Notes under the pieces: generated by a model
Database searches by the model: none
The model's input: the letters and a program-made list of their open reading frames with translations, nothing else
What the model was told of the DNA's origin: nothing
Program-made: the position numbers and the translations under genes
DNA from: Escherichia coli
Lineage (GTDB): Bacteria > Pseudomonadota > Gammaproteobacteria > Enterobacterales > Enterobacteriaceae
Assembly: GCF_003334305.1 (NCBI RefSeq)
Contig: NZ_QOWS01000021.1
DNA: 64,000 nucleotides
Direction: 5' to 3' (one strand)
Shown: positions 2,690 to 49,198 of the stretch, one piece after another
How the letters are laid out: every line of letters begins with the position of its first letter
Numbering within the stretch: the stretch's first letter is position 1

Positions 2690-5648
2690 CCTTAATCGCG
2701 TCATCGGATGGTCTGGTTTACTGCTGACGTCTTTATTGAGTACCAGCGCACTCGCAGACAATATCGGCACCAGCGCAGAAGAGCTGGGGCTGAGCGATTA
2801 TCGCCATTTTGTTATTTATCCCCGTCTCGATAAGGCGCTGAAGGCACAGAAAAATAACGACGAAGCAACCGCCATCCGCGAATTTGAATATATACACCAG
2901 CAGGTGCCGGATAATATTCCGCTGACTTTATACCTTGCGGAAGCCTATCGCCATTTTGGTCATGATGACCGGGCGCGGCTGTTGCTTGAGGATCAACTGA
3001 AACGTCACCCAGGAGATGCCCGACTTGAGCGCAGTCTGGCGGCTATTCCGGTTGAAGTGAAAAGCGTTACGACTGTTGAAGAACTGCTTGCCCAGCAAAA
3101 AGCGTGCGACGCTGCGCCGACCCTGCGTTGTCGCAGTGAAGTCGGGCAGAATGCCCTGCGGCTGGCACAATTACCTGTCGCCAGAGCGCAACTGAACGAT
3201 GCGACGTTTGCTGCATCGCCAGAAGGAAAAACGCTGCGAACCGATCTGCTGCAACGGGCAATCTACCTGAAACAATGGTCCCAGGCAGATACGCTATACA
3301 ATGAAGCACGCCAGCAGAACACATTAAGCGCGGCAGAACGCCGTCAGTGGTTTGACGTGCTTCTTGCCGGGCAGCTGGACGATCGGATCCTGGCACTGCA
3401 ATCACAGGGGATCTTCACCGATCCTCAGTCATATATTACTTACGCGACCGCGCTGGCTTATCGTGGCGAAAAAGCACGCCTCCAGCATTATCTCAATGAA
3501 AATAAGCCGCTGTTTACCACGGACGCACAAGAGAAAAGTTGGCTCTATCTGTTATCTAAATACAGCGCCAACCCCGTTCAGGCATTGGCGAATTATACGG
3601 TGCAGTTTGCCGATAACCGCCAGTATGTTGTTGGCGCGACGCTACCGGTGCTGTTAAAAGAAGGTCAGTACGACGCAGCGCAAAAACTGCTCGCCACCCT
3701 CCCCGCCAATGAAATGCTTGAGGAGCGTTATGCTGTCAGCGTGGCGACCCGTAACAAGGCTGAATCTCTGCGTCTGGCACGATTGCTGTATCAGCAAGAA
3801 CCGGCAAATCTTACCCGCCTGGATCAACTGACCTGGCAACTGATGCAGAACGAGCAGTCACGCGAAGCTGCCGATTTATTGCTGCAACGCTATCCTTTCC
3901 AGGGCGATGCGCGTGTCAGCCAGACTTTAATGGCGCGACTGGCGTCTCTGCTGGAAAGTCATCCTTACCTGGCAACGCCGGCGAAGGTGGCGATTTTATC
4001 GAAACCCTTACCGCTGGCGGAGCAACGTCAGTGGCAAAGTCAGTTGCCGGGTATTGCAGATAATTGCCCGGCAATAGTTCGCTTGCTGGGCGATATGTCG
4101 CCTTCCTACGATGCTGCCGCCTGGAACCGTCTGGCAAAGTGTTATCGGGACACGCTACCCGGTGTGGCGCTGTATGCATGGCTTCAGGCCGAACAACGAC
4201 AACCGAACGCCTGGCAACATCGTGCGGTAGCCTATCAGGCGTATCAGGTTGAGGACTACGCCACCGCACTGGCGGCCTGGCAGAAAATCAGTCTTCACGA
4301 CATGAGCAATGAGGATCTGCTTGCTGCTGCCAATACCGCCCAGGCGGCAGGAAATGGTGCAGCTCGCGATCGCTGGCTACAACAGGCAGAACAACGTGGA
4401 CTGGGAAACAATGCCCTCTACTGGTGGCTGCATGCGCAACGTTACATTCCTGGTCAGCCGGAACTCGCACTGAGCGATCTCACGCGCTCAATCAATATTG
4501 CGCCTTCTGCCAACGCTTACGTTGCGCGGGCGACAATTTATCGCCAACGTCATAATGTCCCGGCGGCGGTGAGTGATTTGCGCGCCGCGCTGGAACTGGA
4601 ACCGAATAATAGCAACATCCAGGCAGCGCTTGGTTACGCCTTGTGGGATAGCGGTGATATCGCACAGTCGCGGGAAATGCTCGAACAGGCGCATAAAGGG
4701 CTTCCGGACGATCCGGCACTGATCCGACAACTGGCCTACGTGAACCAGCGTCTGGATGACATGCCTGCGACGCAGCACTACGCCCGGCTGGTGATTGATG
4801 ACATTGATAATCAGGCGCTGATAACCCCACTGACCCCAGAGCAAAATCAGCAACGCTTCAATTTCCGCCGTTTGCATGAGGAGGTCGGTCGCCGCTGGAC
4901 GTTCAGTTTCGATTCTTCTATCGGCTTGCGTTCCGGGGCAATGAGCACCGCTAACAATAATGTCGGCGGCGCAGCGCCAGGGAAAAGCTATCGTAGCTAC
5001 GGGCAACTGGAAGCCGAGTACCGCATCGGACGCAATATGCTGCTGGAAGGCGACCTGCTCTCAGTTTATAGCCGCGTCTTTGCCGATACCGGAGAAAACG
5101 GGGTGATGATGCCGGTGAAAAATCCGATGTCCGGCACCGGTCTGCGCTGGAAGCCGCTGCGCGATCAGATCTTTTTCCTCGCCGTCGAACAGCAGTTGCC
5201 GCTGAACGGGCAAAATGGCGCATCCGATACCATGCTGCGCGCCAGCGCCTCATTCTTTAATGGCGGCAAATACAGCGACGAATGGCACCCGAACGGTTCA
5301 GGCTGGTTTGCCCAAAACCTGTACCTCGATGCGGCGCAATATATCCGCCAGGATATTCAGGCGTGGACGGCAGATTATCGCGTCAGCTGGCATCAGAAGG
5401 TAGCTAACGGACAGACTATTGAGCCTTACGCTCACGTTCAGGACAACGGCTATCGTGATAAAGGCACTCAGGGCGCGCAGCTTGGCGGAGTCGGGGTCCG
5501 CTGGAATATCTGGACCGGCGAGACGCACTACGACGCCTGGCCGCACAAAGTCAGTCTCGGCGTCGAGTATCAACATACCTTTAAGGCGATTAATCAACGT
5601 AACGGAGAGCGCAACAACGCGTTTCTCACCATTGGAGTGCACTGGTAA
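2676..5648 (+). CDS. nfrA: Outer membrane protein NfrA (phage N4 adsorption protein A), TPR-rich, 990 aa
   Basis: ORF 2655-5648; internal Met at codon 8 gives a signal-peptide-like N-terminus (MKENNLNRVIGWSGLLLTSLL); synteny with nfrB. Confidence 0.85.
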   Translation: MKENNLNRVIGWSGLLLTSLLSTSALADNIGTSAEELGLSDYRHFVIYPRLDKALKAQKNNDEATAIREFEYIHQQVPDNIPLTLYLAEAYRHFGHDDRARLLLEDQLKRHPGDARLERSLAAIPVEVKSVTTVEELLAQQKACDAAPTLRCRSEVGQNALRLAQLPVARAQLNDATFAASPEGKTLRTDLLQRAIYLKQWSQADTLYNEARQQNTLSAAERRQWFDVLLAGQLDDRILALQSQGIFTDPQSYITYATALAYRGEKARLQHYLNENKPLFTTDAQEKSWLYLLSKYSANPVQALANYTVQFADNRQYVVGATLPVLLKEGQYDAAQKLLATLPANEMLEERYAVSVATRNKAESLRLARLLYQQEPANLTRLDQLTWQLMQNEQSREAADLLLQRYPFQGDARVSQTLMARLASLLESHPYLATPAKVAILSKPLPLAEQRQWQSQLPGIADNCPAIVRLLGDMSPSYDAAAWNRLAKCYRDTLPGVALYAWLQAEQRQPNAWQHRAVAYQAYQVEDYATALAAWQKISLHDMSNEDLLAAANTAQAAGNGAARDRWLQQAEQRGLGNNALYWWLHAQRYIPGQPELALSDLTRSINIAPSANAYVARATIYRQRHNVPAAVSDLRAALELEPNNSNIQAALGYALWDSGDIAQSREMLEQAHKGLPDDPALIRQLAYVNQRLDDMPATQHYARLVIDDIDNQALITPLTPEQNQQRFNFRRLHEEVGRRWTFSFDSSIGLRSGAMSTANNNVGGAAPGKSYRSYGQLEAEYRIGRNMLLEGDLLSVYSRVFADTGENGVMMPVKNPMSGTGLRWKPLRDQIFFLAVEQQLPLNGQNGASDTMLRASASFFNGGKYSDEWHPNGSGWFAQNLYLDAAQYIRQDIQAWTADYRVSWHQKVANGQTIEPYAHVQDNGYRDKGTQGAQLGGVGVRWNIWTGETHYDAWPHKVSLGVEYQHTFKAINQRNGERNNAFLTIGVHW

Positions 5649-46082: not shown

Positions 46083-46316
46083 TTAGGCGGCAGAATTACT
46101 CGCGTTAAACAATGGTGCGAGGTCGGGACGAATATCTGCTGGTTTAATCTTTCCACCAGTGGCTGAGACAATTTTCATTACATAGCGGGCATCAATTCCG
46201 CCACCGTGTAGCCAACGCCAAACTGTGGGTTGGGCTACACCGCATAGATCTGCCAGTCGTTTTTGACTACCTGTAATACTGATTGCGAGTTGAATGGTTT
46301 GATTTGTCATTATCAA
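46083..46316 (-). CDS. Cro/YdaS-like HTH regulator, 77 aa
   Basis: HTH (LADLCGVAQPTVWRW); divergent from the cI-like gene across an operator region. Confidence 0.7.
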   Translation of the reverse strand: MIMTNQTIQLAISITGSQKRLADLCGVAQPTVWRWLHGGGIDARYVMKIVSATGGKIKPADIRPDLAPLFNASNSAA

Positions 46317-46324
46317 TTCCTATT

Positions 46325-46380
46325 GGTATTGCAATGAATGAATAATAGCAATGAGTATTAACCCAAGCAATAGCAAAACG
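46325..46380. promoter_or_regulatory. OR-like operator/promoter region between the cro-like and cI-like genes
   Basis: Repeated atagcaat(g/a)agtatt-type motifs shared with the OL region; TATAAA about 9 nt upstream of the cI ATG suggests a leaderless PRM transcript; coordinates approximate. Confidence 0.5.
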
Positions 46381-46420
46381 TGTTTTGACCATCAATACGC
46401 AAGCGTATAAATTAAAACTT

Positions 46421-47113
46421 ATGAAAAAAGAAACTCTTGCTGATCGCTTAAATCTAGCGATGGAACAATCTGGAATGTCTCAAGGCGCTCTTGCAAAGGC
46501 GTCTGGCGTAGCTCAACCCACAATCTGGAGACTGACAAGCGGCAACGCGCGCGGCTCAACAAAAATTGTTGAAATAGCTAATGCATTGGGTGTTCGAACA
46601 GAATGGCTCTCTTCAGGCATAGGCCCGATGAGAAATGACGGTCAACAATCAGGGAAGCCTGCTGTCAGCCATTCCAAATACTTCAAAATTGACGTTCTTG
46701 ATATAGAAGTCAGTGCCGGGCCGGGTGTAATCAACCGTGAGTTTGTAGAAGTTCTACGCTCGGTTGAATACTCGTTTGACGATGCTCGTCACATGTTCGA
46801 TGGCAGGAAGGCGGAAAATATCCGCATCATTAACGTGCGTGGTGACAGCATGTCAGGAACGATCGAACCAGGTGATCTGCTGTTCGTTGATATCACGGTT
46901 AAATCTTTCGACGGTGATGGTATCTATGCGTTTCTGTATGACGACACCGCCCATGTAAAACGCCTGCAAATGATGAAGGATAAGCTGCTGGTTATCTCTG
47001 ATAACAAGAGCTACTCACCGTGGGACCCGATCGAGAAAGACGAGATGAACCGCGTGTTCATCTTCGGGAAAGTCATCGGGAGCATGCCGCAGACATATAG
47101 AAAGCATGGGTAG
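46421..47113 (+). CDS. cI: CI-type repressor (HTH + S24 LexA-like peptidase domain), 230 aa
   Basis: N-terminal HTH (MSQGALAKASGVAQPTIWRL) and C-terminal S24 region (VRGDSMSGTIEPGDLLFVD…KRL). Confidence 0.85.
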   Translation: MKKETLADRLNLAMEQSGMSQGALAKASGVAQPTIWRLTSGNARGSTKIVEIANALGVRTEWLSSGIGPMRNDGQQSGKPAVSHSKYFKIDVLDIEVSAGPGVINREFVEVLRSVEYSFDDARHMFDGRKAENIRIINVRGDSMSGTIEPGDLLFVDITVKSFDGDGIYAFLYDDTAHVKRLQMMKDKLLVISDNKSYSPWDPIEKDEMNRVFIFGKVIGSMPQTYRKHG

Positions 47114-47175
47114 AAATCAGAACAAAATTATGCACTTCGCTTTTCAGCTTACTGTAGTAAGGCAATAAATTAGGC

Positions 47176-47212
47176 TTGACGTTAGCTATCAGGTGCACAA
47201 CAATAATTGTTG
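47176..47212 (+). promoter_or_regulatory. Candidate promoter with a 15-bp perfect palindrome (caacaataattgttg) upstream of the HTH-peptidase gene
   Basis: TTGACG -35-like hexamer followed by the palindrome, 30-65 nt upstream of the 47243 start; coordinates approximate. Confidence 0.4.
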
Positions 47213-47242
47213 AATAATAGGTTTTTTTAACTAGGTGATAAC

Positions 47243-48382
47243 ATGGCAGCGGTTGAATTTCAATTGTCTAGGAAGATGATTGATTGGATAGCAAATTCTC
47301 AAGGAGTTTCTATCGAAACTCTTGCTGACCAAGTCATGCCCAAAAAGATTAATAAATTTCTTAACGGAGTGGTAAGTAAATCCGCAGCAGAAAAACTGGC
47401 AAAAATTGGAGGAATCCCTTTCGGTTTTTTATTTCTTGAAACGCCACCAACTCCAGCCAAACCCAAGATCCCTGACTTAAGGCAAGCTATAAATAGCCGT
47501 GAGTTAGGAAAAGATTTTTTTGATGTTTACTATGATATAGAATATAAACTTGAGTGGTACAAAGACTATTTAAGAGAAAATGGTAATGATGATCCACTCG
47601 ATTTTATTGGTAAATTTAAATTTAATAGAAAATTAAATTATAAGGTTGTTGCTACAGACATAGCAAACACAATACATTTTGATATACAAAAAGAGATAAA
47701 AAATGTCACTTTTGAGAGCTATTTTTCTAAAGTGGCAAAACTAATAGAAGACACTGGCGTATTAGTTTTCAAGAATGGTGTTGTGGGTAATAATAATAAA
47801 AGAAAACTTGACACGCGAGAGTTTCGTGGTTTCTGTATATCTGATAGCGTTGCTCCGATCATTTTTGTAAATAGCTCGGACGCGTTATCTGCGCAGGTAT
47901 TTACATTATTTCATGAGGTGGCTCATCTTTGGCTTGGAGTCGATGGAGTCTCTGGGTGGGACACAGAAAAAAACATAGAATCTTTTTGTAATAAAGTTGC
48001 TGCTGAAATCTTAATGCCTGATAATCTCTTCAAATCTTTCTGGCTTAATGCATCCAGCGATAATAATTATTATCGAGTAAAAGAGGTTTCTAAGTTATTT
48101 AAGGTTAGTGATTTCGCTTGTGCAATCAAAGCGTTACAATTAGATTTGATAGAAAGAAACACTTTGGAGATAATTAAAGATCAAGCTTACAATAAGCCCA
48201 AAAAAGAATCCAATGGTGGTTCTTTCTTTAACACATTACCTGTTCGTAACAGTCCAAAACTTACGAATATAATAATTTCCAAAGCAATGTCTCAACAATT
48301 ACCATTAAGGGAAGCAGGCGTACTGCTAAATGTAAAAGCAGATACAGTTGTTGAATTTTATAAAAAACGAGAATCTCTATGA
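47243..48382 (+). CDS. HTH-fused ImmA/IrrE-family (M78/DUF955-like) zinc metallopeptidase, 379 aa
   Basis: N-terminal XRE-like HTH; HEXXH motif (FHEVAHLW); AGGTGA SD; AT-rich; directly downstream of cI. Confidence 0.7.
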   Translation: MAAVEFQLSRKMIDWIANSQGVSIETLADQVMPKKINKFLNGVVSKSAAEKLAKIGGIPFGFLFLETPPTPAKPKIPDLRQAINSRELGKDFFDVYYDIEYKLEWYKDYLRENGNDDPLDFIGKFKFNRKLNYKVVATDIANTIHFDIQKEIKNVTFESYFSKVAKLIEDTGVLVFKNGVVGNNNKRKLDTREFRGFCISDSVAPIIFVNSSDALSAQVFTLFHEVAHLWLGVDGVSGWDTEKNIESFCNKVAAEILMPDNLFKSFWLNASSDNNYYRVKEVSKLFKVSDFACAIKALQLDLIERNTLEIIKDQAYNKPKKESNGGSFFNTLPVRNSPKLTNIIISKAMSQQLPLREAGVLLNVKADTVVEFYKKRESL

Positions 48383-48891
48383 TTCATAATGGAAAATTCT
48401 TAATTGATAGTAATGTCTTCATAGAGGCAAAAAACTTTGCATATAACTTCAATTATTGCAAAATATTTTGGGATTTTCTTCTCGCTTTACACATTAATGG
48501 TCTGATTTATAGCATTAATGCTGTAAAAAAAGAACTATGTGCAAAAGATGATCCATTGTGTAAATGGATTAAAGAAGAGTTACCATCATCATTCTTCGAA
48601 GATGAGCATAGTTCAATAGAAAATTATGCAAAGTTAATAAATTGGTCAACTAAATTAGATGTTACCGAAAAGGCAAAGTTTGATTTTGCAAGCCATGAAA
48701 AAGCAGATGCTTTTTTAATAGCCCATGCGATGACACATGGATATACTATTATTACCCATGAGAAACCATCCGGTGGCAAACCTAAAAAAAGAATAATGAT
48801 CCCGGATGCTGCTGCTTCTCACGGCGTTAAGACATTAACACTATATGAATTTCTTCCAAGATACGCTAGTCATAATTTTTCTTTGAAATAA
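48379..48891 (+). CDS. PIN-like (possibly DUF4411-family) putative nuclease/effector, 170 aa
   Basis: ATGA overlap with the upstream gene; N-terminal strand-Asp motif (FLIDSNVFIEA) typical of PIN folds; fold assignment is tentative. Confidence 0.5.
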   Translation: MIHNGKFLIDSNVFIEAKNFAYNFNYCKIFWDFLLALHINGLIYSINAVKKELCAKDDPLCKWIKEELPSSFFEDEHSSIENYAKLINWSTKLDVTEKAKFDFASHEKADAFLIAHAMTHGYTIITHEKPSGGKPKKRIMIPDAAASHGVKTLTLYEFLPRYASHNFSLK

Positions 48892-48896
48892 AACGT

Positions 48897-48923
48897 CCCG
48901 GCCACCGTGCCGGGTTTTCTTTT
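48897..48923 (+). terminator. Rho-independent terminator after the two-gene cassette
   Basis: cccggccaccgtgccggg followed by TTTTCTTTT. Confidence 0.75.
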
Positions 48924-49044
48924 GCCTCCCCTCATCACACACACCGTTCAAAAAACCACCACAACCCCGCTTCAGTTATCGCTATGCGATGCAAGTCACA
49001 AAATTAATTCTTTTTGCTATCAAATATTTAATATCAAAACACAT

Positions 49045-49092
49045 CTAGCAATAGCAATAAGTATTGATATCATCAATAGCAATAGCTATTAT
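49045..49092. promoter_or_regulatory. OL-like operator region (pL)
   Basis: tagcaatagcaataagtattg and atcaatagcaatagctattatc repeat the motif seen in the OR region; coordinates approximate. Confidence 0.45.
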
Positions 49093-49198
49093 CACCATGT
49101 CGCAACAACACAACGATACGGCAATCACCTGATTCACCGTTGCGATGACCGCTTAGATCCGCAGCTTGAATTTCAGCAGGCTCCGGGGAGTGCGAGGG

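Follow-up and report, generated by a model that had tools for sequence, protein, structure and literature searches.

The segment upstream of a predicted antitoxin gene at positions 47170–47242 of the 64,000-nucleotide stretch of Escherichia coli DNA analyzed here (the window) most probably provides promoter and leader to a mobile cassette of two genes, or moron, inserted in a rex-like slot after the cI gene of a prophage, a reading to which we assign a probability of roughly 0.75. The proposed anatomy would run, from 5' to 3', through an A-rich UP-like tract, the −35 element TTGACG, a 17-nt spacer, the non-consensus −10 element AACAAT, a transcription start near 47211, a U-rich leader, the Shine-Dalgarno sequence AGGTGAT and the ATG of the first cassette gene (gene 1) at 47243. 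Such a promoter would sustain low-level, cI-independent transcription of an HTH-ImmA/IrrE antitoxin-sensor and a DUF4411 PIN toxin, and read-through from the cI promoters would add to it. The perfect palindrome that covers the −10 element would then not be an independent conserved element, its right arm being an inverted copy of the −10 block laid over the start site, and it may in addition be a site at which the XRE-like N-terminal domain of gene 1 represses transcription. What we infer here from the sequence comprises promoter activity, promoter strength, the transcription start (predicted at ~47211, beneath the right arm of the palindrome) and any protein binding.

Around the cassette, the window is a lambdoid prophage with cro at 46083–46316 on the minus strand and an S24-type cI repressor gene at 46421–47113, and a spacer of 129 nt separates the cI stop codon from gene 1. 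The first part of this spacer (47114–47159, plus strand, as are the following features unless noted) is a junction leading from the cI stop codon to the cassette-specific upstream region; cI-module homology ends at 47113, and the junction is unlike both the cassette-less cI modules and the other cassette lineages, appearing as unconserved sequence in the alignment of upstream regions described below (alignment A2). It is followed by the A-rich, UP-element-like tract 5' of the −35 (aggcaataaattaggc, 47160–47175), whose function is putative and which has a counterpart at the same position in most lineages of the alignment. The −35 hexamer TTGACG (47176–47181), assigned by promoter scan and conservation, is joined by a spacer of fixed length and variable sequence (17 nt, 47182–47198) to the −10 hexamer AACAAT (47199–47204), which lies within the invariant block CAACAAT (47198–47204). 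This block is also the left arm of the perfect palindrome at 47198–47212 (CAACAAT-a-ATTGTTG, that is, CAACAATaATTGTTG = CAACAATAATTGTTG; listed with no strand). The leader (47213–47242) holds a run of seven T residues at 47222–47228 and the Shine-Dalgarno sequence AGGTGAT at 47233–47239, 3 nt before the ATG. Gene 1 (47243–48382) encodes 379 aa in which an ImmA/IrrE (M78) metallopeptidase domain is flanked by an XRE-like N-terminal domain and C-terminal helices, and gene 2 (48379–48891), which overlaps it by 4 nt, encodes a putative DUF4411 PIN-like toxin of 170 aa. A bidirectional intrinsic terminator rich in GC (CCCGGCCACCGTGCCGGG and then a run of T, 48897–48924, given no strand and found by the terminator scan on both strands) starts 6 nt past the gene 2 stop codon and closes the cassette, after which recombination genes and operator-like repeats come.

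The immunity region around the cassette carries OR- and OL-like operator clusters at 46320–46420 and 49010–49095, built on ATAGCAAT/ATTGCTAT-type repeats, examples of which are ATAGCaataGCTAT at 49079–49092 and TATTGATatcATCAATA at 49062–49078. The 3' end of a PRM-like promoter (TTGACC and TAAATT, 17 nt apart) lies 7 nt before the cI ATG, a position which suggests that the cI mRNA is nearly leaderless, as in lambda.

The boundaries of the cassette can be drawn by comparing prophages with and without it. It is present in 33 complete E. coli genomes, always beside this cI allele and in copies that are all at least 99.7% identical here, with no within-species variation to compare, and the same cro-cI module is found without it in ~718 E. 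coli genomes and several phages (e.g., PhiR68_2 and Lambda_4C10). E. coli IAI1 (NC_011741) is one of the carriers. Homology to the cassette-less modules breaks off right at the cI stop codon (47113), where other two-gene cassettes come next, and this assigns the entire spacer to the cassette. The GC content of the cassette is 30–37%, compared to ~50% in the flanks. As for the criteria by which morons are recognized, we find a promoter of its own (predicted), a terminator, an atypical composition and presence or absence behind the same cI module. In its sequence features, then, the cassette is a self-contained moron in the rex slot, AT-rich and with a predicted promoter but no terminator in front and a strong terminator behind, and accessory or defence modules seem to be exchanged at this slot behind cI. 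Other two-gene cassettes in the same slot behind the same cI are seen at 3628–5083 of L091 (341 + 149 aa) and 3615–5031 of L092 (353 + 125 aa). Among isolated phages, a megablast search with the cassette gave no match, tblastn gave two distant matches only, and there is no annotated phage example. In E. coli H14 (NZ_CP024256.1) and H15 (NZ_CP035870.1) the cassette is interrupted by IS1, the match being split in two by an annotated IS1 transposase.

In lambda, rexA and rexB lie downstream of cI, with their own promoter (PLIT) and a terminator (tImm). The cassette shares with rexAB and with morons its slot and orientation relative to cI, accessory genes expressed from the prophage, the predicted combination of cI read-through with an own promoter, an odd base composition and a closing terminator, the position of the last being analogous to that of tImm. 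It differs from rexAB in that its genes are unrelated, in that its promoter stands before the first gene whereas that of rexAB lies inside it, and in that the cassette promoter goes along with the cassette from one immunity region to another. The predicted promoter is nothing out of the ordinary for a moron, and the cassette is of a known type.

A first-pass annotation of the window had pointed to a TTGACG hexamer and a perfect palindrome 30–65 nt upstream of the start codon, and both are found essentially where it placed them, the hexamer 62–67 nt and the palindrome 31–45 nt 5' of the ATG. The promoter scan pairs TTGACG with AACAAT at a 17-nt spacing, within the 16–18 nt expected of a sigma-70 promoter, with 9/12 matches to the consensus. 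Promoter-like sites are no more common here than expected by chance (12 in 3.8 kb vs. 9.7 ± 3.6 in shuffled sequences), and since a 9/12 hexamer pair stands at the shuffle background, the case for a promoter rests on conservation. Upstream regions for this comparison were taken from homologues with 53–82% protein identity (genomes, IMG/VR and assemblies). In alignment A2, which holds 15 such regions, TTGAC, AAnAnT (A107, A108, A110 and T112) and GGTG-ATGGC are invariant and a T-rich leader tract is conserved; the 17-nt spacer is constant in length and nearly unconstrained in sequence, and the flanks vary freely. The arrangement TTGACG-16 nt-CAACAAT is identical in 14 distinct lineages spanning 53–100% protein identity, all with a GGTG ribosome site at the same spacing.

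These 14 lineages are placed behind at least five unrelated repressors, the genes preceding the cassette ranging from S24 repressors of 217–242 aa and short CI-like repressors of 127–155 aa to YdcA and YoaK-like ORFs. Because the footprint is conserved behind unrelated genes, the segment is best read as a promoter carried by the cassette, and the earlier description of promoter-like elements can be made more specific: with −35, spacing, −10 and Shine-Dalgarno sequence invariant in 14 lineages behind different repressors, the elements would form a cassette-borne promoter. Some of the invariant positions deviate from the consensus: G6 in the −35 hexamer and, in the −10 region, A1, C3 and the C just before the hexamer. 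Such constancy exceeds what recognition by RNA polymerase alone calls for and hints at a second constraint, e.g., a bound protein; the conserved blocks might in principle have some other purpose. A metagenome scan with the pattern TTGACG-N16-CAACAAT-N18–34-GGTG was too loose to be selective, returning 120 matches among which only L233 encodes the cassette.

Sequence likeness at the 5' end of the cassette extends into the coding region in one set of relatives. Over the 70 nt before the gene and ~50 nt into it, L115, L105 and L106 on the one side and L082 on the other are far more alike than in the remaining protein (identity to the window protein is 80% for L082 and 54–55% for the L115 group). 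The likeness covers promoter, leader and the first ~18 codons, and in both the first 16 residues read MAVVEFQLS, two variable residues and MIDWIA. This likeness suggests either strong selection on the 5' end or recombinational exchange.

Expression of the cassette by read-through from PRM, in addition to its own promoter, had also been proposed, and it seems plausible that transcripts from the cI promoters enter the cassette since the terminator scan places no terminator-like site between cI and gene 1. Read-through RNA can form a 6-bp hairpin from the palindrome with a U7 run after it, and one could picture the palindrome acting in such transcripts as a hairpin that terminates, attenuates or stabilizes them. 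We regard this as very improbable: the stem is A/U-rich and weak, the U run begins 9 nt past the stem, the terminator scan is empty and the right arm is unconserved. The promoter/leader region matches no Rfam family and its RNA fold is no more stable than those of shuffled sequences (z = +1.19), and the palindrome was accordingly rejected as an RNA element or terminator on these grounds.

The palindrome itself is as perfect as had been stated, 15 bp in a 7-1-7 arrangement at 47198–47212, and it can also be read as CAACAA-N3-TTGTTG. Palindromes with arms of at least 7 and a spacer of 0–3 number 38 in the whole window (~1 per 2 kb) compared to 17 ± 5 in shuffled sequences, and the chance of meeting one anywhere in the 129-nt spacer is P ~0.05. 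A perfect inverted copy of the −10 block immediately 3' of it is a rarer event, with P ~0.0015 in shuffles of the downstream 38 nt. Thus TTGACG and the palindrome are each unremarkable relative to chance and it is the position, with the inverted copy immediately behind the −10 block, that is the unlikely part. The frequency of palindromes of this size in the window favors the view that the palindrome is incidental, meaning that the −10 is kept as a promoter element only, that drift or small indels in the A/T-rich start region gave rise to the inverted copy, that no protein binds it specifically, and that the promoter is constitutive; the low probability of the exact arm at the exact place speaks against it. 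Conversely, the placement over the −10 and the predicted start, the classic one for repression, and the same P ~0.0015 for the right arm favor an autoregulatory operator at which the N-terminal domain of gene 1, probably in two copies, binds the −10 and start and represses its own promoter. In this second case, linker self-cleavage (triggered by ssDNA in the homologue VapB52, discussed below) would both release the toxin and de-repress the operon.

A near-copy of the palindrome, CAACAAaaaTTGTTG, lies 641 bp upstream at 46557–46571, in the HTH-coding region of cI, with the same 6-bp arms and a 3-bp spacer. Two CAACAA-N3-TTGTTG sites in the window compare to 0.004–0.01 expected, and in E. coli the cassette is found only beside this cI allele; both facts would fit a palindrome that serves as the site for some other regulator (cI/Cro or a host factor), perhaps jointly with the copy in cI. 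The copy is, however, also present in the cassette-less phages L091 and L092 and in the c2 gene of Salmonella phage ST160 (L093). Because cassette-less alleles have it as well, CAACAAaaaTTGTTG belongs to the cI coding sequence (S-T-K-I-V-E), where it is probably a coincidence of that sequence, and it was rejected as a second operator linked to the cassette. A cI/Cro operator-like role of the palindrome was likewise discarded, as the phage's OR and OL repeats rely on differently spaced ATAGCAAT/GCTAT motifs and the left arm accompanies the cassette where it occurs in other immunity types. Another regulator of this kind is thus an unlikely explanation for the palindrome. A bolder version, in which the antitoxin N-terminal domain recognizes CAACAA-N3-TTGTTG and binds both its own promoter (47198–47212) and the cI-internal site (46557–46571), is something we would give very little credence. 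If both sites were bound, the defence or toxin module would be coupled to the lysogeny switch, e.g., with cI transcription blocked or looped until ssDNA-triggered self-cleavage.

Whether an operator is at hand depends in part on the nature of the gene 1 protein, for which the first-pass annotation had claimed an HTH of its own. A Pfam search did not detect an N-terminal HTH in gene 1; its presence is indicated instead by the structure model and a PDB homologue, which agree with the claim. The AF2 model (pLDDT 83.7) has five N-terminal helices at residues 10–19, 24–31, 36–40, 46–56 and 60–64 (pLDDT 77–89), and Foldseek gives a local match of this domain to the controller protein C.BclI (2b5a). 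A profile of 22 homologues matches PDB entry 9vzy over residues 10–328 with E = 3.6e-20; this is M. tuberculosis VapB52, an HTH-ImmA antitoxin associated with a DUF4411 PIN tRNase. Such a fold, resembling C-proteins and XRE repressors, which bind palindromes, favors the operator, as does the start of helix 3, which is basic (PKKxNK) and largely conserved. The body of the protein matches CapP, IrrE and PprI in Foldseek (best match CapP, 7t5t) and Pfam family PF06114 (M78/IrrE peptidase) at residues 169–291 with E = 3e-13, and the HExxH residues H224, E225 and H228 are invariant among homologues. PADLOC gives weak matches of gene 1 to CapP and RmrA, those to RmrA at E = 6e-8 to 8e-4 with two spanning residues 20–314. 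RosmerTA, too, combines an HTH and ImmA-peptidase antitoxin (RmrA) with a toxin; the matches to RmrA are weak, and the DUF4411 protein has no PADLOC match.

Gene 2 is annotated as DUF4411 in RefSeq on identical copies, PF14367 is found on its homologues, and none of the PADLOC models matches it. Of 80 genome loci spread from Proteobacteria to Bacteroidota, 77 have a DUF4411 gene behind the gene 1 homologue, and this pairing has earlier been predicted to form a toxin-antitoxin module (PMC5499597).

In the VapBC52 system, the five-helix XRE/C-protein-like N-terminal domain of VapB52 binds the outer face of the dimer of the DUF4411 PIN toxin, the IrrE-type peptidase carries an HTH motif, the C-terminal helices block the active site of the toxin, and ssDNA sets off self-cleavage in the linker that follows the N-terminal domain; the toxin is a tRNase that confers protection against a phage, and the complex has one antitoxin per toxin dimer (PMC13273310). 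EMSA, palindromes, autoregulation and promoter/operator binding go unmentioned in the paper (PMC13273310). The cassette matches this layout, with an XRE-like N-terminus, an ImmA/IrrE peptidase and C-terminal helices in gene 1 and a DUF4411 PIN gene next to it, and gene 1 is a putative VapB52-like antitoxin/sensor. The two are nonetheless distant in sequence and differ in several places. The start of helix 3 is basic in gene 1 (PKK) and acidic in VapB52 (PDD). In the linker, D78 and R80 are invariant and the residue between them is L in the window lineage (DLR) and F in several relatives (DFR), compared to FR in VapB52. The switch-loop cysteine of VapB52 aligns with V236/S237 and has no counterpart in gene 1, where residues 229–245, the loop after HEVAH, are free of Cys. 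With the cysteine missing and DLR in place of FR, activation in the gene 1 family may differ from the published ssDNA/cysteine-switch model. The role of the N-terminal domain in VapBC52, binding to the toxin with one antitoxin per toxin dimer, weighs against the operator.

Further comparison comes from systems in which the IrrE-type peptidase and the HTH are separate. CapH/CapP and ImmR/ImmA each consist of a promoter-bound HTH repressor that is cleaved by the peptidase (PMC13273310; PMC10440598), and CapH, the separate HTH partner of the CapP peptidase, is described there as a repressor cleaved upon ssDNA sensing (PMC13273310), which again would be in keeping with an operator. Common to the cassette, to CapH/CapP (CBASS regulation) and to ImmR/ImmA is an IrrE-type peptidase paired with an XRE-type HTH, whereas gene 1 fuses HTH and peptidase in a single polypeptide and has a PIN toxin as its cargo.

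The comparison among lineages also bears on the palindrome. The left arm, being the −10 block, is invariant, and the right arm ATTGTTG is exact only in the E. coli lineage of the window. Other dyads occur elsewhere, as ACAAT-ga-ATTGT in L115, ACAAT-nnn-ATTGT in L082, L001 and L085, AACAA-n5-TTGTT in L295, upstream as TGTTG-nn-CAACA in L081, L085 and L293, and as the 8-n8-8 dyad TCCATTGT-n8-ACAATGGA in L233. Counted downstream, the dyad spacers are 1, 2, 3, 3, 3 and 5, which puts the half-site centers 8 bp apart in the window and ~10 bp apart in the N3 variants, and 5 of the 14 lineages have no dyad. This changing geometry weighs against an operator, and the unconserved right arm is what an incidental palindrome would lead one to expect, all the more as the downstream variants step by 1 nt in an A run (TAAT, TGAAT, TGAAAT) in a slippage-like manner.

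An inverted 5-mer of the −10 block is nevertheless found within 16 nt upstream or 22 nt downstream in 9/14 lineages versus 3.3 ± 1.6 in flank shuffles, and direct copies nearby in 0/14. The nominal P ~0.001 treats the lineages as independent and, as they are related, is too optimistic; ~4 independent origins could account for the nine. Arms of at least 7 occur in two of the first 12 lineages versus 0.26 expected (P ~0.03), and all five lineages with a KK[ILV]NK helix have an inverted copy of part of CAACAAT. The enrichment and the KK[ILV]NK association count toward an operator, and the excess of inverted over direct copies, together with the two long-armed lineages, counts against a palindrome that is incidental altogether; the inverted-copy excess argues that the dyads are not purely so. 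The number of origins required, by contrast, is small enough to suit the incidental account.

The expectation for a regulator and its operator can be taken from type II toxin-antitoxin systems and from C-proteins with their C-boxes, where close relatives retain the operator and its sequence changes along with the recognition helix. The cassette is like these systems in having a dyad over the −10 and start of its own promoter and a first gene that encodes a small XRE/C-protein-like domain, and unlike them in that the dyad is neither conserved nor co-varying. In L081, an 82%-identical relative whose N-terminal domain is 93% identical (64 of 69 residues) with only an I to L change in helix 3, the right arm is absent. 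Helix-3 residues vary among lineages that share CAACAAT, so that helix 3 and the upstream sequence do not change together, and L104 has the same helix 3 as L115, yet an unrelated upstream region. Perfect palindromes are not enriched among the family's 97 distinct upstream regions (23 vs. 22.5 ± 3.9 in dinucleotide shuffles), a result that also suits the incidental account. The missing arm in L081, the lack of co-variation in helix 3 and the lack of enrichment in the 97 regions argue against a conserved pairing of HTH and operator.

The proposal that the palindrome is an autoregulatory operator is therefore upheld in part. The dyad over the −10 and start and the inverted copies in 9/14 lineages against 3.3 expected stand; the unconserved right arm, the armless L081 and the absence of enrichment in the family do not bear it out. 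We hold an operator in the window lineage only tentatively, at somewhat less than even odds, and think of autoregulation via −10 dyads as a putative trait that we would sooner doubt than affirm, and not as a conserved property of the family. That the palindrome is incidental falls just short of an even chance in our judgment. If it is an operator, it would be a lineage-variable feature and not a defining one, and should the dyads be operators, the family would display an unusually fast change of operator geometry around a fixed half-site.

Returning to the cassette promoter as the favored reading of the segment, its value lies mainly in annotation and experimental design. It defines promoter-to-terminator boundaries for a mobile VapBC52-like toxin-antitoxin or defence cassette that is recurrent in the rex slot of lambdoid prophages and that brings its own (predicted) promoter. 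It also names the bases to mutate, the −35 and −10 as conserved elements and the right arm ATTGTTG as a lineage-specific one. More generally, an operator should not be concluded from a perfect palindrome beside an HTH gene if one arm of that palindrome is a conserved promoter element.

Two further sets of palindromes were noted in the course of the comparison. In a Pseudomonas clade (L051–L064 and L072), the gene apparently starts ~95 nt further upstream, giving an N-terminal extension, and the leader holds a pair of small palindromes, CTACCGtCGGTAG and CGACTAatctgTAGTCG, which are eroded to differing degrees from strain to strain. The upstream palindromes of this clade (CGACTAnnnnnTAGTCG) were considered as support for an operator and rejected, since the right arm decays without compensating changes. 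Within gene 1 of the window, a perfect 18-bp palindrome with 9-bp arms, CGATAATAATTATTATCG, lies at 48058–48075 and is among the longest of the window; it encodes approximately residues 272–278 (SDNNYYR), a stretch that is variable among homologues.
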